Below the pieces are notes generated by a model. It ran no database searches, had not been told where the DNA came from, and saw only the letters and a program-made list of their open reading frames with translations. DNA of 64,000 bases, from positions 53,654 through 117,653 of the forward strand of contig JAPPFD010000002.1 of assembly GCA_028823995.1 (NCBI GenBank), given 5' to 3'. The DNA is from a bacterium. Lineage in GTDB: Bacteria; Actinomycetota; Acidimicrobiia; Spongiisociales; ZC4RG35. The translations under genes were made by a program, and so were the position numbers. Of this stretch, positions 8,245 through 34,384 are shown piece after piece. How positions within the stretch are numbered: the stretch's first letter is position 1; each line of letters begins with the position of its first letter.

Positions 8245-8566
8245 GTCCGGGAGAAGAGCTAATGGGACCGGGTCGCGAAAAAAGAGGTCGCTGAAGTGTT
8301 GCCACTGTCACAGGCCCCGATGCACATTGGGAGGGTCGAACACCTCCCGGTCCGCTCCGACGTCGCCCGGACCGCACAGAGACCACTGTGAAGCGAGGTC
8401 ATATTCCCAGAACGCGCCCCATGCGGCGACCGGCAAAACGCGCTCTGGCCAAATGGTGGTGGCGGCGGGGGCGGGCCCATCGGGTAATTCCGCGCACCCG
8501 TTTTTCGCGGGATAGGTCTCGATTTCGCGATGTGCCGTTCTGCCGGCCGACTCTCTTTCCTGTCCC

Positions 8567-9781
8567 GTGACTACATCGGCGGAGAGCGGGGCGCTGGTTG
8601 CCGGGGTGGGCATGACCCCCTTCGTCGGCTTCCGGGACGACGCTTCGGTGCGGGACATGGTGGCCGAGGCCGCCCGAGCGGCTCTCCTCGACGCCGGGCT
8701 CTCCTCCCCGTCGCCGGTCGACATGGGCGTGGCCGCCTACGAGAGCGATCACTTCAACCGCCAACTGAGCCTCGGGCAGGTCCTCTCCGACACCGTGGGA
8801 CTCACAGGCAAACCCGTGATGCGCGTGGAGGGAGGCGGCGCCACCGGGGCGCTCGCCATCCGCACCGCCCTGACGGCCATCCGCTCCGGAGAGGCCCGCT
8901 CGGTGCTGGTGTTCGGCGGGGAGACCAACGGGCGCTCGGTGGACCGGACCACCGCCATAGAGATCCTGGCCCTCTCCGCCGACTTCGAGTGGGAGACCCC
9001 GGTGTTCGGCACCTTCGCCGCTCCCTACGCACTGATGATCACAGAGCACATGCGACGCTACGGCACCACCGCGGAGCAGTTCGCCGAGATCGCGGTGAAG
9101 AACCGCCGCATGGCCCTCGACAACCCACTGGCGCACCGCGGCATGTCGATCACGGTGGAGGACGTCCGGTCGTCGGCGCCGCTGTCGGACCCCTACCGGC
9201 TGTTCGACGCAAGCCTCCTGAGCGACGGTGCGGCGGCCGTGCTCCTGGCCACCGGGGACTGGGTCGAGCAGCACTCCCCCACCTTCACCGAGCGCCCGCC
9301 AGTGGCCATCCTGGGAAGCGGGTCCGCCACCGACCGGCCCCGCCTCTCGGACCGATCCGAAGAGATGTTCCCGCACTTCGCGGCCAAGCGGAAAGCCGCC
9401 GCCCGGGCATACCGCGAGGCAGGCATCGACAACCCTCCCGACCAGATCGACCTCGCCGAGGTCTACGACTCCTTCAGCGGAGCGGAACTCCAGGCCTACG
9501 AGGACCTGGGACTCTGCCCGGTCGGCCACGGTGGACTGGCCGCCGCGGACGGACGGTTCGACCAGGGTGGCCAGGTGGTGGTGAACCCCTCGGGAGGCCT
9601 GATGGGGCGGGGCTCGGCGGTGGGCGCCACCGGGATAGCCCAGGCGGTGGAGGTGGTCTCCCAGATCCGGGACGAAGTCGGCGGTCCCCGCCAGGTGCCC
9701 GGTGCCCGCATCGGGATGACCGACACCCATGCCGGGGTGGGGTCGCTCAGCGTGGTGAACGTCTTCGGGAGGGTGGGCTGA
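8567..9781 (+). CDS. Thiolase-family protein (SCP-x / nonspecific lipid-transfer-protein-type thiolase)
   Basis: Thiolase-like fold motifs (GGGATGALAIRTA, NPSGGLMGRGSAVGATG) and a Cys-less active-site region typical of the DUF35-partnered SCP2-type thiolases. Confidence 0.75.
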   Translation: MTTSAESGALVAGVGMTPFVGFRDDASVRDMVAEAARAALLDAGLSSPSPVDMGVAAYESDHFNRQLSLGQVLSDTVGLTGKPVMRVEGGGATGALAIRTALTAIRSGEARSVLVFGGETNGRSVDRTTAIEILALSADFEWETPVFGTFAAPYALMITEHMRRYGTTAEQFAEIAVKNRRMALDNPLAHRGMSITVEDVRSSAPLSDPYRLFDASLLSDGAAAVLLATGDWVEQHSPTFTERPPVAILGSGSATDRPRLSDRSEEMFPHFAAKRKAAARAYREAGIDNPPDQIDLAEVYDSFSGAELQAYEDLGLCPVGHGGLAAADGRFDQGGQVVVNPSGGLMGRGSAVGATGIAQAVEVVSQIRDEVGGPRQVPGARIGMTDTHAGVGSLSVVNVFGRVG

Positions 9782-19942: not shown

Positions 19943-21012
19943 CCCAAGTGACACTCAGCGGACTGACCAAGATCTTCGACCAGAAGTCGCCCCCCGCCGT
20001 GGACAACCTGGACCTGGAGATCGAGTCCGGAAAGCTCACCGCCCTCCTGGGACCCTCGGGATGCGGAAAGACCACCACCATGAAGATGATCGCCGGCCTC
20101 CTCCGGCCCACCGCGGGAGACATCCTCTTCGACGGAGACTCGATCCTCAGCATCAAGCCCGAAGAGCGCGGCGCGGTGATGGTGTTCCAGAACTACCTGC
20201 TGTTCCCCTACATGAACATCGCCGACAACATCGGCTTCGGCCTGAAGATGCGAAAGGTGAACAAAAAAGAGATCCGATCGCGGGTGCAGGACATGCTCGA
20301 CCTGGTGCAGCTCCCCGGCTTCGAGGACCGAAAGCCCAACCAGCTCTCGGGCGGACAGCAGCAGCGGATCGCCCTGGCCCGCGCGCTGATAGTCCAGCCC
20401 AACGTGTTGCTGTTGGACGAGCCCCTCTCCAACCTCGACGCCCACCTCCGCGACGAGATGCGCGTGCTGATCCGGAGGATCCAGACCGAGATGGGGATCA
20501 CCACCGTCTTCGTCACCCACGACCAGGAGGAAGCCGTGGTGCTGGCCGACAAGGTGGCACTCCTATTCGACGGGCGCCTCCAGCAGTTCGACGCTCCCGA
20601 TTCCTTCTACGACACGCCCAACACCGTCGATATCGCCACCTTCTTCGGCGGCACCAACTTCATCCCGGGCTACTACCTGGACGGTACGATCACCACCGAC
20701 ATCGGAGTCTTCGACGCACCCAACTCGCTGGTTCCCGAAGGAGACGCAGTGCTGAGCATCCGCCCCGAAGCGGTCGACCTGGGCGAAGGAGGCGAGAACA
20801 GCGTCTCCGGCACCGTCCTGTCCCATGTCTACGCGGGACGCTACGCGCGCTTCCAGATCAGGATCGGCGACATCGAGATCGAGGCGGTCACCGAACCCGG
20901 ACAGGTCAAGTTGTTCGCCGACGGAGACAATATCCCGGTGAAGTTCGATCCCGACAAGATCTGGGTCCTGGGACCGAACACCGCCGAACAACCCGCCGCC
21001 ACCACCGGTTAG
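19939..21012 (+). CDS. ABC transporter ATP-binding protein (PotA/MalK-like with C-terminal TOBE-like domain)
   Basis: Walker A GPSGCGKTT, signature LSGGQQQRIALARAL, Walker B LLLDEP, H-loop. ATGA overlap with the upstream permease. Confidence 0.8.
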   Translation: MTQVTLSGLTKIFDQKSPPAVDNLDLEIESGKLTALLGPSGCGKTTTMKMIAGLLRPTAGDILFDGDSILSIKPEERGAVMVFQNYLLFPYMNIADNIGFGLKMRKVNKKEIRSRVQDMLDLVQLPGFEDRKPNQLSGGQQQRIALARALIVQPNVLLLDEPLSNLDAHLRDEMRVLIRRIQTEMGITTVFVTHDQEEAVVLADKVALLFDGRLQQFDAPDSFYDTPNTVDIATFFGGTNFIPGYYLDGTITTDIGVFDAPNSLVPEGDAVLSIRPEAVDLGEGGENSVSGTVLSHVYAGRYARFQIRIGDIEIEAVTEPGQVKLFADGDNIPVKFDPDKIWVLGPNTAEQPAATTG

Positions 21013-21019
21013 GGACCCC

Positions 21020-22246
21020 TTGGCCCGCTCCGGTCCTTCCGGTGGGTCCATCTCCACGCCCGACAACGGAACCCGCTGGGGTCTGATCGTCGCCGGATGG
21101 TCGGTGTACGCCCTCTACTACATGGGGAGGGTCAACTTCTCTGTGGCAGTCCCCGGACTCGGGGAGGAACAGGGACTCGACGCCATTCGCATCGGCGCTC
21201 TGGCGGCCGGGTTCTTCTGGGTGTACTCGCTGTCGGCGCTCCCGGTCGGGATCCTGGCCGACCGGATCGGCGCACGCCTCCTGGTCGGACTGGGCCTGGT
21301 GGGAAGCGGGCTGATGAACGTCCTCTTCATCCTGACCATCCACAACTTCGCCCTATCGCTGGTCATCTGGTCGGCCAACGGGATCTTCCAGGCCATGGGA
21401 TGGACACCAATCATGGGAGCAATAGGCCGCTGGGTATCCCAGAAGGGAGCCGGACGGATCATCTCCTCCTTCGGTTCCTCCTTCGTAGCCGGGACCGCTC
21501 TCACCTTCGCCCTAGGGGGCTCCATCGTCGAACAAGGCGGGGTCGCAGCCGTGTTCATGGCCGCCGGCATCGTTCTGATTCCCGCCGGCGTCGCCTGGTG
21601 GATCGGAGTGCGCGATCCGATCCAACCGTCATCGGGTGCCAACCGCCCGCGTGCCTCGATCGCCCGAGCGCTCGGACTCCTCCCCCCGGCGGTGGCCTTG
21701 GGTGCCGCGTTCGTTGCGCTGGTGGTGTGGACGCCTGCCTACTTCGTAGAGGTGCACAACCAGGCGGTGGGCCGTTCCGGACTACTCTCCGCCGCCATGC
21801 CGGCCATAGCCATCGGCGCCATCCTCGCCATCGGGCGCTGGTTTCGACACTCCCGCGGTCCGGGCGCCGCCCAGAGGGGCGCCCTGGTGCTGGGAGCCAC
21901 CGCAGCGGCACTGGCAATGGTCAGCCAGGCGTCCGGTCTGCTGGCGGGATTCGCCACCGTCGCGGTAGCCACCGCCCTGGTCGGCGCGTCATCTTCCATC
22001 GTGCTCAGCCTGTTTCCCAGGATGACCTCTCCCACAGGCGTGGCGTTGGTCAGCGGCATCTATTCGCTGGGTTTCAACCTGGGCGGCGGCGCAGGATCAC
22101 CGATCGTGGGAAGGCTCGTCGACCAGGACGCCTGGGACGGGGTGTTCCTATTCCTGGCCGGATCCGTCCTGGCAGGTGCAATCTGGATCATCGGCTGGTA
22201 CATATGGACACGATCCCGCCTACACGAAGTGAGACTCGGCCGATGA
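21020..22246 (+). CDS. MFS transporter
   Basis: 12 predicted TM helices and MFS loop motifs (ILADRIGARLL). The start is uncertain (possibly ATG at about 21122, MGRVNF). Confidence 0.7.
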   Translation: MARSGPSGGSISTPDNGTRWGLIVAGWSVYALYYMGRVNFSVAVPGLGEEQGLDAIRIGALAAGFFWVYSLSALPVGILADRIGARLLVGLGLVGSGLMNVLFILTIHNFALSLVIWSANGIFQAMGWTPIMGAIGRWVSQKGAGRIISSFGSSFVAGTALTFALGGSIVEQGGVAAVFMAAGIVLIPAGVAWWIGVRDPIQPSSGANRPRASIARALGLLPPAVALGAAFVALVVWTPAYFVEVHNQAVGRSGLLSAAMPAIAIGAILAIGRWFRHSRGPGAAQRGALVLGATAAALAMVSQASGLLAGFATVAVATALVGASSSIVLSLFPRMTSPTGVALVSGIYSLGFNLGGGAGSPIVGRLVDQDAWDGVFLFLAGSVLAGAIWIIGWYIWTRSRLHEVRLGR

Positions 22247-23031
22247 ACGATCGCCAACCCAAACACAGAGCCGTGATGGACCTCGGCCGAGAAGAATGGC
22301 TGGAGGCGCTCGGAATGGACGCCGCAGACATCCCGAAAGCAGTGATCATGGAGGGCTCCTGGTGGCGAGCCCAACGCACCGAGTGGCGCCTGAGCTACCT
22401 GGACGACGTGCGTGAACTCGCCTTCCCAGACATGTTCTACGGCTTCTGGCAAGGATCACCCGTCGTCTACTCCTGCGTCTACGGAGCACCAAGGGCCGTC
22501 GAGTTGGCACACCTGTTCGGAGTACTGGGCACCTCCCGGATGGTGATAATCGGCACCTGCGGCGCTCTAGATCCCGGGTTGGCTACCGGGGACGTGGTCG
22601 TCCCTTCGCGAGCCGTGGCTCGGGAGGGCGTAGCGCACCTCTACAAGACAGTGACCTCAGACCCCGGCATCGTCCGCTCCGACCGGCACCTGACCGCGCA
22701 AGGTAGGACTGCCCTGGAGAACAGGGGTATCAGAACCGCGGACTCCCTACATCTGACCTGGAGTTCCATCTTCGCCCAGAGCGGAGCCATGGTCGAGGAA
22801 TGGCGGGAGACAGCCTACGGATCAGTCGACATGGAAGCCGCCACACTCTTCGCCGTAGCAAAACACTTCGGCTTCGCCGCCACAGCGCTGCTGGTGGTCT
22901 GGGATCAACTCACCGCCGATCGAAGCTTCCTCGACCCCCTAACGCCTGAGGAGCAAAGCAGTCTTGAGGTTGCCAACATGACCGTATTCGAGGCAACTCT
23001 GGACATAGTGTTGAGTCCAGACCACCTTTGA
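22243..23031 (+). CDS. Nucleoside phosphorylase (PNP/UDP family 1)
   Basis: ATG in ORF 21097..23031 overlapping the upstream stop (ATGA). PNP_UDP_1-like motifs (IIGTCGALDP, MEAATLFAVA). 262 aa. Confidence 0.7.
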   Translation: MNDRQPKHRAVMDLGREEWLEALGMDAADIPKAVIMEGSWWRAQRTEWRLSYLDDVRELAFPDMFYGFWQGSPVVYSCVYGAPRAVELAHLFGVLGTSRMVIIGTCGALDPGLATGDVVVPSRAVAREGVAHLYKTVTSDPGIVRSDRHLTAQGRTALENRGIRTADSLHLTWSSIFAQSGAMVEEWRETAYGSVDMEAATLFAVAKHFGFAATALLVVWDQLTADRSFLDPLTPEEQSSLEVANMTVFEATLDIVLSPDHL

Positions 23032-23143
23032 CACATAAACCGGATTACCACAGACTCGCCTTAAGATCGAAGAAAAGCATAACCAACGATTTGGAGGTCA
23101 TCCACGGTCCTCTTCTTCTGGGACCACGACCCAGACAACTCTC

Positions 23144-26100
23144 CTATCCATCGGATCCTAGCAACTCGATCATCCCTTCAGGTAAACCAAAGCGTTCCGA
23201 TACCCTGACTTCCCTAAAACGGCTTGTCCTTCTTCCCAGGGATTCCTCAAGTAAGCTGACGTAGCGCCTTTGTGCACGATAGTCTCTTGCCGGCATCAAT
23301 GCCTTCAATGCTATCACAAACCCCGTTGCTTCATCACCCAGTAATCGATTGTTTTCCAATGTGTTAACTATTCTATTGAAGGCATCGCCGCGTGAACACC
23401 CGATATCTTGGGCAATGGATATCAGATCTTCCTTGCCGCCACCTAGCCAGACATTCTGTTGGCAGAGCTTGATCAACAGACCTGCTAGCTTTTCGTTCGG
23501 CTTGTCAAGCGCTTCGACTTTCTTGATCTCCAGTCCCAGATCGCCTAACTGCCCTCGTTCTGCTACTGCCCCCAGAACCGGCAACATCGCCGTGTCCCTA
23601 TTCAGAACATCGTAAGCTCTCCGCAAGACTTCAACACCATCGTCGACCAGTGACGAGTTACCAACGTGGCAGTCAAAGGAGGAGTGTCTTCTTCCCACGG
23701 TAAGAAATAGCTTTGCCCCAGCAGTTGGTGATTCACTGACCAAGTTAGCCAACACATGAAGGGGAACAGGCTGTCCCGCAGGAAGCACTCGATAAATCTC
23801 TTCTAATGTATCCACATCCGTCTGCCGTAAGGTAGGAAAGTCCTCTAAGCGTGCGGGGAAGGAGTAAAGGAACATTAACCAGTTGATAACTTCAGCAACG
23901 AACTGACGGGACCTACCGGAAGGCAAATTACTAAACAGTGGTATCACATCTTCTAAGGTTCTTCTATCCGCATCCATAATAAACATCGGATTAAAAACCT
24001 TCAACGGCGATAACGTTACTGGAAATCCAGTAGTCCCAATTCTCGCGTCGAACGGCAAACGCTGATCCGCCATTGAAAGCACATCTTCCCACACGATACC
24101 CTCATCGAACCAGCGAGTCTCGGCTGTGATCCAATCGTCTTGGTCGCCCAATCTCCCTTCTTTGGCTCCGTCTGCCAGCTCCAATAGCTTTTTCGCATCG
24201 GTACATGACTCCAGACACGCTACAATAGGCCACGGTAATGTTCGCCACACAGTCCTATTCGCTGCATGGTCCTCGTCAAAGGAGACCTTTGCAAAGGCCT
24301 TAAGTGTACTCGCTAACATATCTTTGGAAGGTGCCTCTAAGAATCTGCCAGCCCACTTATACGGTAGCCAACTGGGATGCCAGTCAGAAATCGCATTAAG
24401 CGTTTGCAAAACCGTCGCGCTACCAGGAGTCAACCGGTTAATTGGCCCGTAGGACAACATCGTATCTAAAACCGTGACTCTAGGGCCGCCGTGATGTCTA
24501 GGAGACTCCAGTATTGAAATCGCGGCTTTTAGGGTCGGGTCCACGTCCTGTCGCTCCAATAATGCCCTTCGTTTTTCTGACTGGAACACACCTACAAACG
24601 TACCAATGGGTGTCCTCGGAATTAGGCGCAGCACCTGCTCAGTTGCCCAACCGTTCTTAGTGTGGTCAGTGTCGGCTAACAGAATATCAACCTGGTCTTG
24701 GACGCCATTAGGCCAATAACTGTTTGCCATGTCGGTAGCCCAGTCGACGTCATTAGCGACAAGCGCAAGTAAACAATTCCAAGCTCCTAAGAACTTAACA
24801 TGGTCGCTACCTGTAAGTCGCAGCCCTAATTCGTCTCGGTAAATGGTCTCCATTTGAGAATCATACACATTAGCTAACTGTGCATGCAGACGGGGGTTGG
24901 CCTTATCCAGCGCTCTAATCGCCAGTCTCCCTAGCAGCGTTTTGTATTTCGGCTGCCGCCGTGCCGAACCCTCCTCTAGCAAGGCGATGGCCAGGTCCGC
25001 ACCCACTAAGTGCAAACCTTCCCCCTCGTTACCGTCTTCTTCATTCAAAGCGGCACAAGTTGAATGCACCAACTCGCGAAGCTCCTGCCGCTGAGCAAAA
25101 CATTTGCCCGCAGCAAACAAGAAAACGTTCCTCCAGAATGGGATGGGAGCTATTTCCTCTAATCGCGCCTGGATGTCGGGATAGGTGTCCTCCACTAAGC
25201 TCTCTGCCGCCATAAACTCTTGCAACGAGCGGATTTCAAATCCTATTCTCTCCGCTTCCATTTCGACCAAAAACACCAAACGCTCCGAGGCCGCTGCCAC
25301 GATCTGTTCGGCGATAGTGCGTCGATCCTCCTCCGGATGTTCCTCCGCCCTTAGCCGCGCTTCTACAAGAGACACAAATCGATGGCGATCCAACAAAGCG
25401 TCTGTTCTGCCTGTCCTTTCAGAGTCCACTTGAAGGATGAGGCCCACTTGGTTGTGGATAGTCCTAATGTCGGGTTCGTATTCACTCAATATCCTTGACG
25501 CAGAGATGTCCCTTTCCATTTCTCTGTCGTATATGACGTCGTAATATGAATTAAACAGATTCCAACGCGCTTGTGGAGGCTGCCCTAAACGATCTACCAA
25601 CGCAGTCATAATCGTTACCTGCAACGGTGTCCTCATCAAACGACTGGTTGATGGATCTCCAAAAGCCCGCCTTAACCGGCCTAACACCTTTTCTTTCCGA
25701 TCTTCGTCAGCACCATACCGGACTGCAGCGAGCCGCTGCGCATAATGCCAACCAAGTTGTTCCGACAACTCGGCCAGATGTTGGTGTTGGTAATACAGCG
25801 GTGAAAAGTCCTCATTGTAGCCTTGGGGGCGACTAGTCGCTATTGAGAGAATGTCCGCGTTAGCACTGCTGGCATCCACCCAGAACTCTCTAATGGCACG
25901 CAGAACTTCATCTCTGTTGCTTGAAGGTGGTACCTCATCTAATCCGTCAAAAATGAAGACACTTGGATAGACCGCGAGGAACTGACGTAGATCCGCCGGT
26001 GATACCTCGGCATCAGTGCGTCTCTTTATTTGTGATGACAAATAGCCAAGCACGGAGTATATTGGCGACTCCGAACTGGGAGCCAAAGCCTTGGCAAAAT

Positions 26101-27205
26101 CGTTTAATGTCAATTTAAAAGGAAAGCGAGGCACGACTTTATGCGAGATGTTTTCGCTTTCGCAATGGTGCTGAATCGTTCCTAAGGCACCCTTTGTGGG
26201 CGGAGACCATGTATGCTCAGGTTTTCTCGCGATGACCGCAGCACGGAAGATTTGGCAAATGAACTGCGTCAACGTAGTCTTTCCCTGACCTGGACCTCCG
26301 ATCAATACAAACCGCCCGCGGGATGCTCCAGCTAAACCTGCCTCAATGCGGTCTGGCACTGGAGAGGCACCCACAGAAGCAGGATCAAGACGTTCGGAAG
26401 ATGCGGCCAATACGTTTCTGATGAATCCTTCCTTAAGCTGAGGCCGGCCGACATCATTAAGATCCTCAAGGGCCTCGCCCAGCATATGTGACCTAATCAT
26501 ATTGGGCTCATGTTGAATAGGCAGGTCAACAAACACCGTGGCTAGAGGTATAGGTTCGTTTACAGTGTGACCAGCTTGCTCCAGATTGACGTACTCATCG
26601 CTTAGCAATTCCTTTTCCAAAAACCGCGTCATGGTAGTATGCATGTCAACCGATGCCGGTTTTAGTGTCGCAAAGGCGGCCGCGAGCACATCGCCTGGCG
26701 TTATGAAAGTGGAATAGGTGGTCCTAACTTCAGGATAAATGTCAAGGAATATGCGAATCTGGTCATAGTCCCATATGGCGTAGTCCTTGAGATGTGATTG
26801 CGATTTGAATTCCTTTAGAACGGCAAATGCCTTGTCTTTGGAACCTTTATCCTTTACTGGTGTTAGAACCACATTCGTAGCGTAAATGAAGAAATCAGGT
26901 GACCGTATGTTGGTGTCTGGGTCGGTATACTTTTGTAACTCGTCCCTTAGTTGCTCTACTGCCCATAGCCCGTCTTCATAGACATTGCCGGAACGCTGCC
27001 GGAATTTTGCCTGTACAACGCCATAACCATCCCAGCCATCTAAATGCGTGGGGTAAGGTACCTTCCGTTCGAAAGTCGCCTCTCGCCCACCGTCGGGGCC
27101 ATCCCCAAACACCACAATCCCAGGGCCCAAAACCTTAGCTGCTAACGCTTGAATCAACTGCTCAAACGAGCGGGGAGATAAAGTTGAAAGGTTGTAGTCA
27201 GCCAT
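23144..27205 (-). CDS. Bacterial NLR-like (bNACHT / Avs-like) STAND NTPase with an N-terminal Mrr-type restriction-endonuclease domain and a long C-terminal helical sensor-like region (1353 aa). Putative antiviral defence protein.
   Basis: Residues 1-70 match the Mrr_cat pattern (SFEQLIQAL...GDGPDGGRE...GVVQAKF). NACHT-type NTPase: Walker A at about aa 300-312 (FVLIGGPGQGKTT), Walker B (VFIFDGLDE) and the NACHT-specific TSR motif (ILSIATSRPQGY). About 750 C-terminal residues are helical-repeat-like. The gene is about 50% GC against a host background near 68%. Confidence 0.75.
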   Translation of the reverse strand: MADYNLSTLSPRSFEQLIQALAAKVLGPGIVVFGDGPDGGREATFERKVPYPTHLDGWDGYGVVQAKFRQRSGNVYEDGLWAVEQLRDELQKYTDPDTNIRSPDFFIYATNVVLTPVKDKGSKDKAFAVLKEFKSQSHLKDYAIWDYDQIRIFLDIYPEVRTTYSTFITPGDVLAAAFATLKPASVDMHTTMTRFLEKELLSDEYVNLEQAGHTVNEPIPLATVFVDLPIQHEPNMIRSHMLGEALEDLNDVGRPQLKEGFIRNVLAASSERLDPASVGASPVPDRIEAGLAGASRGRFVLIGGPGQGKTTLTQFICQIFRAAVIARKPEHTWSPPTKGALGTIQHHCESENISHKVVPRFPFKLTLNDFAKALAPSSESPIYSVLGYLSSQIKRRTDAEVSPADLRQFLAVYPSVFIFDGLDEVPPSSNRDEVLRAIREFWVDASSANADILSIATSRPQGYNEDFSPLYYQHQHLAELSEQLGWHYAQRLAAVRYGADEDRKEKVLGRLRRAFGDPSTSRLMRTPLQVTIMTALVDRLGQPPQARWNLFNSYYDVIYDREMERDISASRILSEYEPDIRTIHNQVGLILQVDSERTGRTDALLDRHRFVSLVEARLRAEEHPEEDRRTIAEQIVAAASERLVFLVEMEAERIGFEIRSLQEFMAAESLVEDTYPDIQARLEEIAPIPFWRNVFLFAAGKCFAQRQELRELVHSTCAALNEEDGNEGEGLHLVGADLAIALLEEGSARRQPKYKTLLGRLAIRALDKANPRLHAQLANVYDSQMETIYRDELGLRLTGSDHVKFLGAWNCLLALVANDVDWATDMANSYWPNGVQDQVDILLADTDHTKNGWATEQVLRLIPRTPIGTFVGVFQSEKRRALLERQDVDPTLKAAISILESPRHHGGPRVTVLDTMLSYGPINRLTPGSATVLQTLNAISDWHPSWLPYKWAGRFLEAPSKDMLASTLKAFAKVSFDEDHAANRTVWRTLPWPIVACLESCTDAKKLLELADGAKEGRLGDQDDWITAETRWFDEGIVWEDVLSMADQRLPFDARIGTTGFPVTLSPLKVFNPMFIMDADRRTLEDVIPLFSNLPSGRSRQFVAEVINWLMFLYSFPARLEDFPTLRQTDVDTLEEIYRVLPAGQPVPLHVLANLVSESPTAGAKLFLTVGRRHSSFDCHVGNSSLVDDGVEVLRRAYDVLNRDTAMLPVLGAVAERGQLGDLGLEIKKVEALDKPNEKLAGLLIKLCQQNVWLGGGKEDLISIAQDIGCSRGDAFNRIVNTLENNRLLGDEATGFVIALKALMPARDYRAQRRYVSLLEESLGRRTSRFREVRVSERFGLPEGMIELLGSDG

Positions 27206-27576
27206 GTTTATGCATCGGCTGCTGTTGTGTGATAGGCGTATCCGGGCGAACCTTTACACGGTCCGGGGCATGCCAGGAAAAGAATTTGAGCATGATGAGA
27301 GAATACTAGCCGTCGACACATCGACTCTGCCGCAAGCCTAGGTGCATGAGGTTGTTCAATGTTGGGTAGTTTCCATACATGCTGCCCCCGAAGCCGCACC
27401 CCCTTTTGCCCCAGAATCCGCGCCCCACACTTCGCCGTAGCTAAACAGTCGGGATGACTGCGACCGCCCTACTGGCACTTCGGCATCAGGGTACAGAGCT
27501 TTCAGGGCCGCTCCATGCGTGTCACACCCGGATAGGTATCCTGGCGGGGGAGCCCATCCCAGGAGGATGATTGAGA

Positions 27577-27924
27577 ATGCGGTTGGAAGACCTGAACCCC
27601 GAAACGGTGGTCGATGGTCTCGTGGCGGGGGAACGGGCCACCGTGGTGGCCGTCTATTGGCATGGTGCGGGGACTGTCCAAGTGGTGTATCGCACATCCC
27701 AAGGTGTGTCTGAGAGGCTTCTGTCCCGCGACGACGAGGCCCGCCTGTTGGTTGCCACCGCAGAGCGTCCCTGGACGCTCGATGCGCCTGGTCACGCTTT
27801 CAAACTCGCATCAGAAGCGCTCCGCATCCACTTGGCGCATCTGTTCGATCCCTACCTAGCCGTCCAAGGGTCGAACATTAGCTGCATGTTGTGGAGGGAA
27901 TCGGCACTGCAGGCCAGAGGTTAG
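27577..27924 (+). CDS. Hypothetical protein (115 aa), divergent from the NLR-like gene
   Basis: Strong RBS aggagga 9 nt upstream of ATG 27577; a TTG at 27571 is also possible. No recognisable domain. Low-GC context. Confidence 0.4.
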   Translation: MRLEDLNPETVVDGLVAGERATVVAVYWHGAGTVQVVYRTSQGVSERLLSRDDEARLLVATAERPWTLDAPGHAFKLASEALRIHLAHLFDPYLAVQGSNISCMLWRESALQARG

Positions 27925-28074
27925 TCCCCTAAACAAAACTCCGTCTTACGGATCAGGGTTGCTAGCTCAACTGGTGTGGAAAGGAGATCTTCCTTTTCTC
28001 TTGCTACGATGGCACTTCGTCCTTGGTGACAGGATCCGTCGTGGTGGGTTGCCGAGAAAAGAGATCTCTGGGGA

Positions 28075-29187
28075 GTGCTGTTTTATAGTATGTTGTCTGA
28101 CTGGGTGGCTTCGATGGAGATGCTTGTGGTGTTCCAGAGAGAGTGTCAGCGAATCTTTGCAGAGTTATCGGAGTGGAATGACGGCCATCCAGAGTGGCAG
28201 AAGATGTTTGGTGGATGGTTGGGGTTGATGTTTACAGCGGTGGTTTTGGCTGGGTCGGGATGGGCAGATCCGGTCCGGCTAGAGGAATTCCTGCGCCTTA
28301 TTGTGACTCCGCTAGCCGTTTTCTGGGGCTTTGGGGAGTATGGCAGAAGATGGCAGTCTGACGACCATCCCGGCGAGGTGGGGCCTTCTTCCGCTGAGGG
28401 TCGAGAAATCGATTGGCGGCGGACATTAGTAGGAGTGACCCACTTGGCAGGAATAGTTGCCGTCCTCGCCATCCTGATTCTTGTGGTTTTCGTTGATGGG
28501 CCTTCGGAACTGTGGACTGCGTTTGCCCCTGGAGTTCTCATTTTTGTGTGTCTAGCGATTACCAACGCTGTCGCTCGTGCAGTGGGCAGCAGGCCGGCCC
28601 GTTTCTCTGTTGCGCACACCGTGCCTGACGTCGGGAGGGGCCGAGTGCTGGCAGCCACGTTGATAGACAGTGTTATGGCGTGCGTATTTTCGCTTTTCCT
28701 GCTGATGATGCTCCTGGCGGCTTTGGCAGTAGAGGACCAGGTGGGTTCCGACATGCTGCCCTTTACAAACAAGGACTTGGGAAATTCCTTCGATGGCATC
28801 TGGATACCGTTGATGGTGTTCTTGGCAGTCTTCTTGGTGTACCGGTGGGTCGCCCTTCGGAGATGGGGATGTGGACTGGGTGGGCTTTCGATGCGATTGC
28901 AACTCCGTGACCACGGGGGCGAGAGGCCAGGACGGTTCAGGCTTCTCCTAAGGTGCGCATTCGATACTGTATGTATGGGTATGGCTGTGGCCGCGGTTGC
29001 GTTCCTCCCGGCCGATCGGGGGGTCCCGGCGATGGGCGCGGTTGTAGTGATCGCTGTTTGCGTTGGTACCAATGAAGGCAGAAGCCTGACCCATGTACTG
29101 TCGGGCACACAGTACGAACTGCGACAACGCGGTGGACCCAGCCAAAGATCGAACCCAAATGGCGGGATAGACCCACTTGAAACCTAG
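28075..29187 (+). CDS. Hypothetical polytopic membrane protein with an RDD-family-like C-terminal region
   Basis: At least 6 hydrophobic helices. The C-terminal segment resembles RDD-domain proteins (RWGCGLGGLSMRLQLRDHGG..RLLLRCAFD). Start uncertain. GC about 54%. Confidence 0.45.
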   Translation: MLFYSMLSDWVASMEMLVVFQRECQRIFAELSEWNDGHPEWQKMFGGWLGLMFTAVVLAGSGWADPVRLEEFLRLIVTPLAVFWGFGEYGRRWQSDDHPGEVGPSSAEGREIDWRRTLVGVTHLAGIVAVLAILILVVFVDGPSELWTAFAPGVLIFVCLAITNAVARAVGSRPARFSVAHTVPDVGRGRVLAATLIDSVMACVFSLFLLMMLLAALAVEDQVGSDMLPFTNKDLGNSFDGIWIPLMVFLAVFLVYRWVALRRWGCGLGGLSMRLQLRDHGGERPGRFRLLLRCAFDTVCMGMAVAAVAFLPADRGVPAMGAVVVIAVCVGTNEGRSLTHVLSGTQYELRQRGGPSQRSNPNGGIDPLET

Positions 29188-29541: not shown

Positions 29542-30759
29542 CTAGGCGGCGGGGTCGACCAGGCGTCCTATGAATAAGAAGGCGCCGGTTTCGGGGTGAA
29601 CGATGGCCCAGAGGAAGGGGCGGTCGGCGACCACCGTGAGGTCCGGTGGTGGTGGTGCTGACTCCTTGAAGGCCATGGCGGTGGCTGCAGCGGCTTCGGT
29701 GCCTTTCTCGTCGACGATCACCTTGGCGCCGTGGAGGGCGGCGGTGATGAAGATGCCCGGGGCGATGTCATCGAAAGGCGCTCCGGCGCAGAACCCCCGG
29801 GGGCAGAGCCACTCGAACAGGTCGGTGGGCGGCAGGGTTTGTTCCCACTTGGGCATGGTTAGATCGACAAAGCCCTGTTGGGCAATGTCCTCAAGGCCGG
29901 TCAGGTCCTGTGAGTCGAGCAATTCCTCGACCGCTGGAAGTCCTCCTGGGTCGTGGGGCACGATCAGCCACATGGCCAACCGGCCCCCCTGGTATGGGAG
30001 TTGTACCGCGTCGGCGCCGTCGAGTCGGACGAAGCGACGAGCGACCGGCTCCCGGTCGCGCATGAACGGTACCGTCACCGCGAGGCCGTCTCCGGTGGTG
30101 AACGGGCCATCTTCGGTCCACTCGGGGAGGAACGGCTCTGCCCAGTCGGCCTTCAGGTACACCGTGTTCACCAGGACCAGTTCCTGGCTTTGGACGGTCT
30201 GTTCGGTGACGATGGTGGGAACCAGACCGCGGGTGGTGTCCGATACCCATCCGTTGATGGTCTCGGCCGCCGACGCGCCGTCGTCGAGGTCGATCGGGTG
30301 GACCGCCGCTCCGTAGTGGGCGCCGGCAATCTCCAAGAAACCGGGCAGTGGAGAGAACTCGTCGTCGGGGAAGAGACGGTTGGCCACCTCCAGGGTGGTC
30401 GGTTCCACCGAGGCGGTGGCCAGCATCAGATCGACCGCATTGGCCGCAGGGTGAAGATCAAGCTCGGGGAACCCGAAGATCTCATCGAGCACCGCCCCGG
30501 TGTCTCCGGATGCGCCGGCCCGGCTGAGGCTGAAAGCCAAACCGAGGCTGACCGGACTGGAGACCGCGTTGCCCACCAGGTGGCGATGAAAGTCCCAGCC
30601 GGCCGCGTTGGCTCCGGCCACCCAATCCGCCGTCGGCGCCAGGGGATCGGCTGGCAGCCGGTCGGCCACCGGCTCCAACAACGTCGTGGTGGTGACCGAG
30701 GGACCGCATGCCGCGGTCAAGAAACACAGGAGAACGAGAAACCTGAGCAATTTTGTCAT
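29542..30759 (-). CDS. Serpin-family protease inhibitor, lipoprotein (bacterial serpin)
   Basis: ATG at 30759 (MTKLLRFLVLLCFLTAACG is a signal peptide plus lipobox). Serpin hinge GTEAAAAT, then the reactive-centre loop. C-terminal serpin signature (VADRPFLWAIVHPETGAFLFIGRLVDP). About 405 aa. Confidence 0.8.
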   Translation of the reverse strand: MTKLLRFLVLLCFLTAACGPSVTTTTLLEPVADRLPADPLAPTADWVAGANAAGWDFHRHLVGNAVSSPVSLGLAFSLSRAGASGDTGAVLDEIFGFPELDLHPAANAVDLMLATASVEPTTLEVANRLFPDDEFSPLPGFLEIAGAHYGAAVHPIDLDDGASAAETINGWVSDTTRGLVPTIVTEQTVQSQELVLVNTVYLKADWAEPFLPEWTEDGPFTTGDGLAVTVPFMRDREPVARRFVRLDGADAVQLPYQGGRLAMWLIVPHDPGGLPAVEELLDSQDLTGLEDIAQQGFVDLTMPKWEQTLPPTDLFEWLCPRGFCAGAPFDDIAPGIFITAALHGAKVIVDEKGTEAAAATAMAFKESAPPPPDLTVVADRPFLWAIVHPETGAFLFIGRLVDPAA

Positions 30760-31034
30760 AGCTTGTTCGATCGTAAGAAGAGCCTCAGAGAACCTCGTTG
30801 TCAACTCTAGAACGCGGCCTAGCAGATGTGCGGAGACCACATGGTCGGCTATTCGAAGGGACGCCGGGGCCAATCGAGGAGGACGGCCCACTTATCATCC
30901 TCGACCAATGGCCTCTTTGATTGACCACTTCTCTCCTCCAAAGCGCCCCTCAACGCGACTCGGGGAGGCGAAGTGTCACACCCCCTTCCCATGCTTGCTG
31001 CAAGCAGCATTCCAGCAGGGAGGAGGCCTACATC

Positions 31035-31784
31035 TTGAGTAACCGATCTGGGATCGAGTGGACTGAGACGACGTGGAACCCGACGACTGGTTGCGACCAG
31101 GTGTCCATGGGGTGTGACAACTGCTACGCGCTGACTTTCGCGAAGCGTCTCAAGGCCATGGGCCAACCCAAGTATCAGAACGACGGTGATCCTCGCACCA
31201 GCGGTCCCGGATTTGGACTCACCCTACACCCGGATGTCTTGGCCGAGCCAAGGCGATGGAGGGCGCCTAGGTTGGTGTTTGTGAACTCAATGAGCGACTT
31301 GTTTCATCCCGAAGTCCCTCTCGAGTTCATCCAAGAGGTGTTTAGTGTGATGGCCGAAACGCCACAGCACACCTACCAGATCCTTACCAAGCGTTCCAAG
31401 CGACTTGCATCTCTCGGGCCCCAGCTGGACTGGTCCCGAAATGTTTGGATAGGTGTCAGCGTTGAAACCAGTCGCTATGTCTTCCGCATCGACCACCTCA
31501 GAACCGTTCCTGCCGAAGTCCGCTTCATCAGTGCGGAACCTCTACTGGGTCCTCTTCCCAATCTGGATCTCTCGGGCATCCACTGGCTGATCGCAGGGGG
31601 AGAGAGCGGCCCCGGGGCAAGACCCATCGAAGAAGCATGGGTCCTCGACTTGCGGGATCAGTGTGCAGCCGCCGACGTAGCCTTCTTCTTCAAGCAGTGG
31701 GGAGGCCTCCACTCAAAATCCGGTGGCCGGGAACTTGATGGTGCTCTATATGACAATTTGCCATCACTCAGCAAGGCAAGCTAG
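31035..31784 (+). CDS. Phage Gp37/Gp68-family protein (DUF5131) with an N-terminal three-Cys motif
   Basis: TTG start at 31035 preceded by ggaggagg. N-terminal IEWTETTWNPTTGCDQVSMGCDNCYA matches the family hallmark (C-x6-C-x2-C). About 250 aa. Confidence 0.7.
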   Translation: MSNRSGIEWTETTWNPTTGCDQVSMGCDNCYALTFAKRLKAMGQPKYQNDGDPRTSGPGFGLTLHPDVLAEPRRWRAPRLVFVNSMSDLFHPEVPLEFIQEVFSVMAETPQHTYQILTKRSKRLASLGPQLDWSRNVWIGVSVETSRYVFRIDHLRTVPAEVRFISAEPLLGPLPNLDLSGIHWLIAGGESGPGARPIEEAWVLDLRDQCAAADVAFFFKQWGGLHSKSGGRELDGALYDNLPSLSKAS

Positions 31785-31798
31785 GCCGGGCCAACATT

Positions 31799-32785
31799 GT
31801 GCGGGTATGGGGATGCTGGACCAAAGGCAAGTTGGACATTCTGCGGCGGTATCTGGATGCCTTCACCACAACGACCAAGCACAAGTCAGATGAAAGGATT
31901 TATATTGATGCTTTCGCTGGTGAGCAGGAAAACCGACTTCGTCTGACAGATGAGCCTCTGGAAGGTTCGGCAAGAATTGCGTTATCAATTGAAGATCCAC
32001 CCTTCACCCGATTGCGTTTCTTTGAAACCGAAGCCAACGCATCCGCGCTTGAGTCATCGTTGAGGCGCGACTACCCAAACCGTGATCTGGAAGTGTTAGG
32101 TGGGGATTGTAATGAACTCATCCCCAGGGAACTTGCTCGGTTGCGGCGGCTCAATCGAGTTCCGACGTTCGCCTTTATTGACCCTAACGGTATGGAGGCG
32201 GAGTGGCGAACGTTAAAGGCATTGGCGCATTTCAAAGAGGGACACCGGTGGAAAGCCGAGATTCTCTACTACTTTGCACCGCCGATGTTTACGCGAGTAT
32301 TGCCGGTTGATGGCCAACCGGTCAGCAAGAAAAACGCTGCGAGAATTGATCGTCTCTACGGTACGAAGGACTGGCGTTTCATTTACGAGGCCCGCCTACG
32401 TTGTGCCTTAGAGCCTTGGCAAGCCCGACAAGAGTACCTCAATCTGATGAGATGGCGCATGGAAGAATCCTTAGGATATGAATGGACACTCCCGATTGAA
32501 GTTCGAAATGAGCGGGGCGTCGTCATCTATTACATGATCTTTGCCACTGATCACGAAGCGGGTGAACGCATAATGGGGAGCGTTTACGCTAAAGCTGCCG
32601 AAGAGTTTCCGATAATGCGCGAGAAGGCGCGAAGGATTCGCAAACAGGAAGAAAACAAAGAACGCGGCGTAACAAGCCTTTTCGGTGAGGACGATGGAGA
32701 ACTCTGGGGCCCAATTCTGCCAGGAGAACGGTTTTACGAACACGAGCCACCTACCAGGCCATGGTTCCTGCGCGAGTGCCCTTGA
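31799..32785 (+). CDS. Three-Cys-motif partner protein TcmP-like, with Rossmann/methyltransferase-like motifs
   Basis: Immediately downstream of the DUF5131 gene. N-terminal WTKGKLDILRRYLDAFTTT resembles the TcmP family start. IYIDAFAGEQ and FAFIDPNG resemble MTase motifs I and IV (weak). GTG start. About 48-50% GC. Confidence 0.55.
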   Translation: MRVWGCWTKGKLDILRRYLDAFTTTTKHKSDERIYIDAFAGEQENRLRLTDEPLEGSARIALSIEDPPFTRLRFFETEANASALESSLRRDYPNRDLEVLGGDCNELIPRELARLRRLNRVPTFAFIDPNGMEAEWRTLKALAHFKEGHRWKAEILYYFAPPMFTRVLPVDGQPVSKKNAARIDRLYGTKDWRFIYEARLRCALEPWQARQEYLNLMRWRMEESLGYEWTLPIEVRNERGVVIYYMIFATDHEAGERIMGSVYAKAAEEFPIMREKARRIRKQEENKERGVTSLFGEDDGELWGPILPGERFYEHEPPTRPWFLRECP

Positions 32786-32972: not shown

Positions 32973-33827
32973 TCAGTTCTGGTCCCCACCCACAAAGGAA
33001 GAAAGCACCTCCGGTATCGCCTCCCATGCAACCGAGCGGGTGAGACGATTCAGTGTTCCCACCCCCACACTCTTCTGTCCACCAAGTTCCTCATCGAGCA
33101 CTGAGGTTGGGACCACCCAAAATACCCAGCACAGTGGATCCTGAACATCCTTATTGGTTGCGGGTACGGTGTCATGAAGGCAGAACACATAAATGTCAGC
33201 CAGACGCCGGGGCGGATCGAAGGTTTGCCACTGGTCTGTGTCGGGATCCCATGCCATCTTCCTAGGCCTAATGTCGAATCTCGGTGTCGACATCTGTTCG
33301 AGGTTCCACGTCTGGCTGATTCCCGAGGCCTTGACTTCGATGGTGAGGTTGCGGTAGCGGAGATCATACGAGTTCCACTCGGTTCGATGGTCGGCGTCAT
33401 CAATGATGCCGAGTGCTTGACCGACCAGCCACTCGGCATATAAGCCTCTGTTGACGTTGTCAACAAGATTCCCGACGGCCCAACGGTTGAAGCTCCCGGG
33501 TGGAGGGCTGGGGGGAGGCTTAAGCCAAACAATGGGAATGTCAGGAGCAGCAGGCGACAACAAATCCATCGCGTGGTACATCTCATCCTGGTAGTAGAGC
33601 CACCAGCGCCCCATGGGCCCTCCTGCCCAGCTGTCAAACCCCAGTTCTATCCCGTTGCCAAGCTTGATAAGCGCTATGGCTTCGAATTCCCACCATTCGT
33701 TGTACCGGGGGCCGGCAAACAGTTGGGGGCCAAAGGCCAGGTAGGAATGCTCTCGCTCGATCAGCCGATATACAGCTACCGATCCTTTGGTGATCCTGTC
33801 GGGTTCTCCGTTGCGTTCTCTGTTCAT
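32973..33827 (-). CDS. Hypothetical protein with a C-terminal PD-(D/E)xK-nuclease-like signature
   Basis: The E...D...E-x-K arrangement (YAEWLVGQALG ... YDLRYRNLTIEVKASG ... DIYVFCLH) is typical of the restriction-endonuclease fold. Second gene of an operon with the HNH-DUF433 gene (ATGA overlap). Confidence 0.45.
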   Translation of the reverse strand: MNRERNGEPDRITKGSVAVYRLIEREHSYLAFGPQLFAGPRYNEWWEFEAIALIKLGNGIELGFDSWAGGPMGRWWLYYQDEMYHAMDLLSPAAPDIPIVWLKPPPSPPPGSFNRWAVGNLVDNVNRGLYAEWLVGQALGIIDDADHRTEWNSYDLRYRNLTIEVKASGISQTWNLEQMSTPRFDIRPRKMAWDPDTDQWQTFDPPRRLADIYVFCLHDTVPATNKDVQDPLCWVFWVVPTSVLDEELGGQKSVGVGTLNRLTRSVAWEAIPEVLSSFVGGDQN

Positions 33828-34384
33828 AGAGTCTTGGCCCTAACGGTTCGCAGAAGCTCGATCTGACGGTCGATGATCCGCTCGGCATCCGACATCTCGA
33901 TGCCCTCGTAGCAATCCAGGAACTGGTCGAGGGTTATGCCTTCGTTGAGCTCCTCGAATAGCTCGGCAATAGGCAACCAAGTACCGGCAAATACCCACTC
34001 ACCGCTAAGACGGTCCGTACGTCTCTCAACAGCTCCGCATGTTTCCCAGATCGACTGGCGTTGTTCTGAGGACTTGCCGAATTGCCTCACTACAAGGGGT
34101 GGCTGCCACCCGCAACCGCAATTCCGCTCGGCCGCGAGGCGACGCTCTGGTGATCGGTAGTCAATGGGTTGATCGGTTTTCCGTCGATTGCAAGTTTGGC
34201 AGAGGGTTTGGAGGTTGTTCCAACAGTCTGGCCCGTCAGCGGCTTGCGGGACTATGTGGTCGATCTCAAGATCCTGGGAGCTTCCGCAAGAAAGGCATTG
34301 ATCCCCATCGAGACTGAACACCCGTTCGCGACGTCCCTTCTTTTTACTCATACGTGGGAATCTTAACGAGCGGGTGTGACGCAT
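33824..34384 (-). CDS. HNH endonuclease fused to a C-terminal DUF433 domain
   Basis: HNH motif CLSCGSSQDLEIDHIVPQAADGPDCWNNLQTLCQTCNRRK. C-terminal GTWLPIAELFEELNEGITLDQFLDCYEGIEMSDAERIID matches DUF433. The likelier start is ATG at 34351 (MSKKKGRR). Confidence 0.7.
   Translation of the reverse strand: MRHTRSLRFPRMSKKKGRRERVFSLDGDQCLSCGSSQDLEIDHIVPQAADGPDCWNNLQTLCQTCNRRKTDQPIDYRSPERRLAAERNCGCGWQPPLVVRQFGKSSEQRQSIWETCGAVERRTDRLSGEWVFAGTWLPIAELFEELNEGITLDQFLDCYEGIEMSDAERIIDRQIELLRTVRAKTL

Follow-up and report, generated by a model that had tools for sequence, protein, structure and literature searches.

In the stretch of DNA analyzed here (64,000 nucleotides, hereafter the window), an NLR-like gene with a STAND-type P-loop lies head-to-head with an open reading frame (ORF) of 115 codons, which is itself followed by a gene for a polytopic membrane protein of the RDD family. 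The arrangement raises the question of whether the two smaller genes belong with the NLR-like gene as parts of a single system or have come to lie beside it by routes of their own. We addressed this question by establishing what the small ORF is, how the same region is organized in related loci, and whether any of the three genes keep company elsewhere.

Organization of the locus

The features of the locus are as follows (coordinates are those of the window; L171 and L002 are related loci described below).

22834-22930, + strand: PNP_UDP_1 gene, 3' part; left copy of a degenerate direct repeat
23144-27205, - strand: NLR-like ORF, 1353 aa, with a P-loop (STAND-type); context gene
27206-27576: noncoding gap of 371 bp, with no convincing ORF inside
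27206-27377: upstream region of the NLR-like gene, conserved with L171
27403-27488, + strand: fossil noncoding copy of the PNP_UDP_1 3' end; right repeat copy flanking the NLR-like gene
27482-27576, + strand: hmaA upstream region, putative promoter and 5' UTR, conserved with L171 and L002
27561-27566, + strand: AGGAGG ribosome-binding site, 10 nt before the ATG at 27577
27577-27924, + strand: 115-aa ORF, with its stop codon at 27922-27924
27577-27879, + strand: hmaA codons 1-101; PADLOC match; predicted small beta-barrel plus helix
27880-27924, + strand: nonhomologous tail of 14 codons (SCMLWRESALQARG) plus stop, where the helicase frame enters foreign DNA
27880-28113: junction DNA of unmatched origin, 234 bp, 50% G+C, from the breakpoint to the RDD start
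28114-29187, + strand: RDD-family polytopic membrane protein, 357 aa from the ATG or 370 aa from the GTG at 28075

Both the long noncoding gap beside the NLR-like gene (371 bp, 27206 to 27576) and the strong ribosome-binding site of the 115-aa ORF (AGGAGG, 10 nt before ATG 27577), to which an earlier note on this DNA had drawn attention, are borne out. The ATG at 28114 is the start chosen for the RDD ORF by the public gene calls, and its frame is open from GTG 28075. The sequence across the junction was assembled twice, from two samples and by two pipelines, and the two versions are 100% identical over 6.8 to 7.9 kb, indicating that the junction is real sequence and not an assembly artifact.

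The small ORF and the RDD gene had both been described as low in G+C content, which holds only in part, the RDD gene having 57% and the small ORF 61%, compared with 61 to 66% for the flanking host genes; the G+C content of the NLR-like gene is 50%. A low-G+C mosaic (49 to 57%) extends from ~23.0 to 34.4 kb of the window, inside a genome of 62 to 70% G+C, and contains the NLR-like gene, the Hma stump discussed below, a DUF5131/TcmP pair (PADLOC PDC-M41), and an HNH-DUF433 gene. A serpin gene lies at 29542 to 30759, beyond the RDD gene. Scans of the window for tRNA, tmRNA, and Rfam families found nothing.

Identity of the 115-aa ORF

Pfam gives no match to the 115-aa ORF, which is recognized by the PADLOC model for HmaA alone (PDLC00659; E = 1.7e-30, 103.7 bits), with profile positions 2 to 106 of 1176 aligning to ORF residues 1 to 104. 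HmaA is the SNF2 helicase of Hma (helicase-methylase-ATPase), a candidate defense system put forward by Payne et al. (2021, PMC8565338), who counted 1638 instances across 26 phyla. When one genome was scanned for each species, 597 stretches were found to encode an HmaA-type N-terminus; among the 80 loci kept from these, nearly all of the ORFs lying inside the contig are 1165 to 1200 aa in length, and the same N-terminus heads ORFs of 1165 to 1200 aa in more than 50 genomes. The full-length homologues match the window at residues 1 to 104 or 1 to 105 only (tblastn with eight homologues and the HmaA of L171, searched against the 64 kb).

Aligned with its relatives, the window tracks the family as far as ...LAVQGSNI, after which the family reads DPLPHQ, where the ATPase core starts, and the window reads SCMLWRESALQARG followed by a stop. 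At the DNA level, blastn homology to L171, L002, and L001 (an Acidimicrobiia MAG, OZ219757) ends at 27878, one base short of a complete codon 101. Pfam detected neither an SNF2/DEAD ATPase core nor a Helicase_C domain in the ORF, which stops at 115 aa; the stump lacks all of the ATPase motifs and therefore cannot have helicase activity.

Judged by its sequence, the 115-aa ORF is the leftover first 101 codons of hmaA, a relic rather than a functioning member of an Hma system. The gene that the earlier note had left without an assignable function can thus be named as the 5' stump of the hmaA helicase gene, on the strength of the PADLOC match (E = 1.7e-30) and of its 89% identity to the N-terminus (residues 1 to 104) of L171 HmaA. 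Its entry in the public record (OXJ55_06895, "hypothetical 115-aa protein") should be relabeled as a truncated hmaA pseudogene.

An intact sister locus and the loss of hmaABC

The NLR-like protein has its closest homologue (86% protein identity) on Logan contig ERR13605529_7612 (L088, or L171 for the entire contig), on which the gene order is MFS, PNP_UDP_1, NLR-like gene, divergent gap, hmaA, hmaB, and hmaC. The HmaA of L171 is 1160 aa in length and covers the whole profile (1434.8 bits), its HmaB is a 917-aa DUF1156 methylase (1031 bits), and its HmaC is a DUF499 ATPase with an N-terminal HEPN domain (877 bits) that runs off the end of the contig. Between L171 and the window, DNA homology is unbroken over 20497 to 27377, restarts at 27482, and stops at 27878. 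Values of dS between the two loci are alike for the stump (0.47), the NLR-like gene (0.44), PNP (0.56), and MFS (0.42), indicating that the locus codiverged and that the stump is orthologous to the intact hmaA. No trace of HmaA residues 105 to 1160, of HmaB, or of HmaC was detected in the 64-kb window by tblastn with the L171 proteins, even at E = 10.

The comparison with L171 shows that an ancestor had a three-gene Hma system (hmaA, hmaB, and hmaC) standing head-to-head with the NLR-like gene, an arrangement kept in L171, and that the window lineage lost hmaA codons 102 to 1160 together with hmaB and hmaC. The loss amounts to at least ~8.7 kb, counting hmaC only as far as the cut contig of L171 holds it; the right end of the lost segment is undefined, since L171 ends inside hmaC, and deletion followed by insertion and a single replacement look alike. 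The place of the lost segment is now taken by unrelated DNA carrying the rare RDD-family gene. All that is left of hmaA is its upstream region, ribosome-binding site, start codon, and 101 codons, from which the frame runs into foreign sequence and reaches a stop 14 codons on. The junction DNA itself (27880 to 28113) matches neither the fetched loci nor any other part of the window, and a search for repeats, inverted repeats, or element ends at the breakpoint and around the RDD gene yielded none that were convincing, nor was an integrase identified at the junction. The loss was probably recent; the stump may still be transcribed and translated from the hmaA signals, presumably without function, and read-through from the hmaA promoter may add to the expression of the RDD gene. 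Our main reading, to which we assign a probability of roughly 0.87, is that the locus holds an hmaA stump left by a lost Hma system and an unrelated RDD cargo gene, neither of which is a partner of the NLR-like gene.

Two further relatives bear on the position of the breakpoint. In L002, the PNP gene has 87% DNA identity to that of the window, the hmaA stump lies 489 bp from PNP, and there is no NLR gene; hmaA is also truncated, at a site 6 to 8 nt from the cut in the window, with different DNA beyond. A junction shared by the window and L002 was considered and rejected, the local alignment being no better than those of shuffles. Synteny with L001 was likewise rejected: L001 shares the stump alone (72% DNA identity), in a setting of different genes.

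The 371-bp gap

The gap is a three-part mosaic, made up of the old divergent control region of the NLR-like gene and hmaA together with a fossil duplicate of the PNP 3' end. On the NLR side, a blastn block with L171 (window 27377 to 23082, 85.8% identical) reaches 172 bp past the NLR start codon, and on the hmaA side, the upstream region (27482 to 27576) is 83.9% identical to that of L171 and 81.6% identical to that of L002. The repeat copy at 27421 to 27447 is 89% identical to 22839 to 22865 (repeat family D2), the PNP 3' end of L002 matches window 27421 to 27475, and L171 9348 to 9442 matches window 22930 to 22834 (blastn). This degenerate copy of the PNP 3' end is also present in L171, so that part of PNP is directly repeated on either side of the NLR-like gene.

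The gap had been predicted to hold divergent promoters and regulatory sites. The two upstream blocks conserved with L171 (27206 to 27377 on the NLR side and 27482 to 27576 on the hmaA side) are in keeping with this prediction, but a scan for sigma-70 consensus promoters, which does not cover other promoter types, returned 0 sites in the gap. Terminator-like sites in the gap number 4, compared with 2.3 ± 1.5 expected.

The RDD gene

The downstream protein, which had been described as a polytopic, RDD-like membrane protein, matches that description: it scores 35.5 bits against Pfam RDD (PF06271), above the cutoff of 24.1 bits, over residues 192 to 300 of the 370-aa ORF, and it has at least five hydrophobic segments within residues 116 to 331 (Kyte-Doolittle, 19-residue mean of 1.6). 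NCBI also names the protein as RDD family. Candidates for the conserved Arg and two Asp residues from which the family takes its name can be seen in the stretches RVLAATLID... and ...CAFDTV.

Only two homologues of the RDD protein were found among 5.8 billion proteins. One of them, P0078, has 65% identity, and its DNA (in L089) is 76% identical to window 28131 to 29122; it lies ~800 bp downstream of a tmRNA gene that adjoins smpB and is split by a frameshift. The other, P0079, has 38% identity and lies between integrase fragments and IS481, IS21, and ISL3 elements. The dN/dS of the RDD gene relative to P0078 is 0.31 to 0.42. Neither an NLR-like gene nor hmaA is next to the RDD gene in the context of P0078 or of P0079. 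In L090, an uncharacterized SNF2-type gene, cut by the locus end, occurs ~6.4 kb downstream.

The RDD gene is best read as rare, independent island cargo and not as a STAND accessory. The only characterized member of the RDD family is an Na+(Li+,K+)/H+ antiporter from Halobacillus andaensis (PMC5996927), and by analogy, the protein encoded here may be a cation/proton transporter.

Linkage of the NLR-like gene

More than 1200 full-length homologues, most of ~1347 aa, make the NLR-like family a large one. Pfam NACHT reaches 19.2 bits on the protein, against a cutoff of 26.7 bits, and covers the P-loop residues (300 to 320) only; the P-loop and Walker-B-like motifs are invariant in an alignment of 20 family members. 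A sequence search of the PDB with the NLR-like protein returned no match.

Linkage was surveyed in 80 metagenome loci (874 kb) carrying NLR relatives of 29 to 53% identity, 50 of which have at least 1 kb of upstream flank and 65 of which have at least 1 kb of downstream flank. Homologues of the RDD protein, the 115-aa ORF, or full HmaA occurred in 0 of these 80 NLR-relative loci, and clustering of their 450 neighboring ORFs revealed no recurrent neighbor family beyond near-identical contigs. The NLR-like gene behaves as a single-gene unit, and its adjacency to hmaA is a matter of local history.

The survey speaks directly to the suggestion that the NLR-like (STAND) system includes the small ORF and the RDD protein as accessory or regulatory parts. 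What recommends this suggestion is position: both genes adjoin the NLR-like gene, divergently and across a common 371-bp gap, and in L171, the NLR-like gene again adjoins hmaA. Such adjacency is not maintained, however, in any of the 80 loci, none of which has an HmaA or RDD homologue or any recurring neighbor, and the more than 1200 NLR homologues contrast with the three members of the RDD subfamily (the query included). The stump in L002, moreover, lies beside PNP without an NLR gene, and the small ORF is itself just a piece of an enzyme of 1160 aa. We consider an accessory role very unlikely for either gene. The earlier note, which had raised this role, had itself looked to conserved linkage with NLR-like genes elsewhere, and none was found (0 of 80 loci). 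It had also raised the idea of an independent module, of which one half survives: the stump does come from a separate system, Hma, which once faced the NLR-like gene head-to-head and survives intact in L171, but stump and RDD gene do not make up a joint module, the RDD gene occurring elsewhere without HmaA or NLR. What looks like a three-gene STAND module is an accident of defense-island turnover.

Decay or constraint in the stump

There remains the matter of whether the stump is simply decaying or has been domesticated as a stand-alone mini-protein acting as a regulator, decoy, or dominant-negative partner of Hma-like or RNA-polymerase-associated machinery. The state of its coding sequence could be taken to favor domestication: the 101 hmaA codons contain no internal stop or frameshift, and dN/dS is 0.10 against L171 and 0.08 against L002 (0.06 to 0.10 among the stump regions of the window, L002, and L171), compared with 0.14 to 0.22 for neighboring working genes. 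Such low values, however, fit a very recent loss as well as continued selection on the stump, and they are expected anyway if truncation spans less than ~20% of the branch; by our own estimate, a neutrally evolving stump can have been truncated for no more than about one-fifth of the time elapsed since the split. We take a recent loss to be the simplest reading. The distribution of changes also points away from domestication, in that a three-taxon partition places ~7.5 nonsynonymous changes on the window branch, as opposed to 3 on that of L171 and 4 on that of L002, suggesting mild relaxation on the branch leading to the window stump. The start signals (ATG with AGGAGG in the window, against GTG in L171, L002, and L001, and weaker sites in the relatives) and the cuts in the window and L002, which are 6 to 8 nt apart with differing DNA downstream, could again be read in favor of domestication, as could the AlphaFold2 model, in which a complete and confident beta-barrel (residues 1 to 58, pLDDT 87 to 92) is followed by a helix. 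A Foldseek search of this model against the PDB gave weak KOW/SH3-like matches only (best E = 0.02). Past the breakpoint, by contrast, the tails in the window, L002, L001, and L003 are unrelated to each other, and the 14-residue tail in the window is modeled at low confidence (pLDDT ~46 to 51). In other genomes, true 5' hmaA stumps are 123, 177, 211, and 247 aa in length (two frameshifted genes also occur), and this range of lengths indicates that there is no fixed domain boundary. Short database matches, mostly of 72 to 470 aa, from a word-indexed protein search and an exhaustive representative search, form a continuum of lengths, as contig-end fragments do and as a family of conserved length would not. 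Metagenome contig-end fragments dominate these matches, and the word-indexed search seemingly returns only proteins of up to ~200 aa; for these two reasons, the short matches are uninformative with respect to a stand-alone family. Taken with the unrelated tails, the varied stump lengths, and the excess of changes on the window branch, domestication seems unlikely. It is likewise improbable that a retained and expressed barrel mini-protein modulates some other SNF2- or Hma-like machine, or that it serves as a leader ORF driving the RDD gene from the old hmaA promoter. A new question would arise only if the stump proves to be both expressed and constrained.

The stump could also be viewed as part of an otherwise complete Hma system into which a cassette has become embedded, with the remaining hma genes further downstream. 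Hma tolerates embedded cassettes between its genes, and embedded genes are present in 62.7% of Hma systems (bioRxiv 10.1101/2024.01.29.577857). Embedding falls between hma genes, however, and not in the hmaA reading frame, which is where the window is interrupted, and the search for HmaA residues 105 to 1160, HmaB, and HmaC came back empty for the entire 64 kb at thresholds as permissive as E = 10. An embedded cassette is extremely improbable and was rejected within the window; for it to hold, the missing hma genes would have to lie more than 36 kb downstream.

The loss of Hma beside an unrelated RDD cargo gene, which we prefer to each of these readings, makes the locus a case of ordinary gene decay in a defense island, with nothing new beyond its annotation. 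Its value lies in the pairing with L171: together, the two loci form a natural before-and-after pair for the loss of Hma beside a retained NLR-like gene, and they contribute a small data point on the speed with which whole systems are lost from defense islands.

Comparison with known systems

Relative to Hma as otherwise known, the stump corresponds to the start of HmaA, its first 101 residues aligning to the beginning of the HmaA profile. It differs in retaining 9% of the protein, and the SNF2 ATPase lobes, Helicase_C, NOV_C, hmaB, and hmaC are all absent here.

As for the RapA-type SNF2 ATPases, residues 88 to 289 of L171 HmaA align to RapA (E ~4e-38). The N-terminal domain of RapA has been reported to adopt a KOW/SH3-like barrel fold. 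The modeled barrel of the stump weakly resembles KOW/SH3-like barrels, with no significant match, and unlike the RapA-type ATPases, the stump ends before the ATPase core.

Like the characterized RDD-family antiporter, the RDD protein is a multipass protein with a Pfam domain scoring above the gathering cutoff. It differs in having an additional N-terminal extension of ~190 residues with further hydrophobic segments, and it belongs to a very small subfamily (three members) found in island and mobile-element contexts.

With respect to gene turnover in defense islands, the window matches the general pattern, in that a low-G+C mosaic is situated between host genes and its gene content varies among close relatives.

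Probable insertion of the NLR cassette

The NLR-like gene, which is of the STAND type, is bracketed by a repeat:

Window 22834-22930 and 27403-27488: degenerate direct repeat, two copies flanking the NLR-like gene

The two copies share a core of 27 nt at 89% identity, and the full repeat reaches over approximately 85 to 97 nt at approximately 74 to 78% identity. The right copy (27403-27488) is a non-coding fossil, corresponding to the 3' end of the PNP_UDP_1 (PNP) gene. The same repeat-bracketed arrangement is present in L171, the sister contig, and in L002, a contig from a relative, the PNP gene and the hmaA stump occur without an intervening NLR gene. The NLR cassette thus looks like an insertion into the 3' end of the PNP gene, with the target duplicated in the process.

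Truncation and origin of the Hma locus

The breakpoints of hmaA, the SNF2 helicase gene of the candidate Hma defence system, lie only 6 to 8 nt apart in the window (27877-27885) and in L002 (1685-1705), with codon 101 the last retained in the former versus codon 103 in the latter. The DNA 3' of the breakpoint is unrelated between the two (the L002 contig ends 61 nt past its breakpoint). By pairwise dS, the stumps do not come out as sisters; the two truncations may share an origin or may reflect recurrent events. HmaC of the sister contig, where hmaA is intact, carries a Swt1-like HEPN domain at its N-terminus (Pfam, E = 3.9e-19), followed by a DUF499 ATPase.

L171 2-2752, minus strand: HmaC of the sister contig

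Beyond the window's own lineage, the closest stump is in an Acidimicrobiia MAG (OZ219757.1, 10001-10459; 72% DNA identity), among genes unrelated to those neighboring the window's stump and with a GmrSD gene 4 kb downstream. Because this closest outside relative sits in a genome assigned to a phylum other than that of the MAG label of the window (Caldilineaceae), and its flanks are unrelated, the comparison suggests either that the Hma locus moved by horizontal transfer or that the taxonomic label is doubtful.

Composition of the low-GC island

The nearest homologue of the RDD gene (L089, 6538-8777) lies beside smpB, with a tmRNA gene (tag AKPQMALAA) approximately 800 bp upstream of it. The homologue's reading frame is broken up between two ORFs that overlap (7697-8110 and 7953-8777), so that it is to be read as a pseudogene or as the product of a sequencing error. 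In the window, further genes accompany the RDD gene in the island:

29542-30891: serpin gene (Pfam, E = 1.6e-66)
30921-32785: DUF5131 (Gp37/Gp68-like) gene, then a TcmP "three-Cys-motif partner" gene
32973-34384, minus strand: 284-aa ORF and an HNH endonuclease-DUF433 fusion (186 aa)

The serpin gene is host-like in composition (66% GC, GC3 of 0.80) and is flanked by the low-GC RDD gene on one side and the low-GC DUF5131/TcmP pair on the other; therefore, the island is a mosaic rather than a single insert. At its right edge, adjoining a GntR gene, the 284-aa ORF, which has no family match in Pfam, PADLOC or NCBIfam, shares a 4-nt overlap with the HNH-DUF433 gene. The TcmP gene matches TIGR04474 (177.9 bits), and together the DUF5131 and TcmP genes correspond to PDC-M41B/A, a candidate system in PADLOC (E = 1e-108 and 1e-28), making them an additional candidate defence pair within the same low-GC island as the NLR-like gene.
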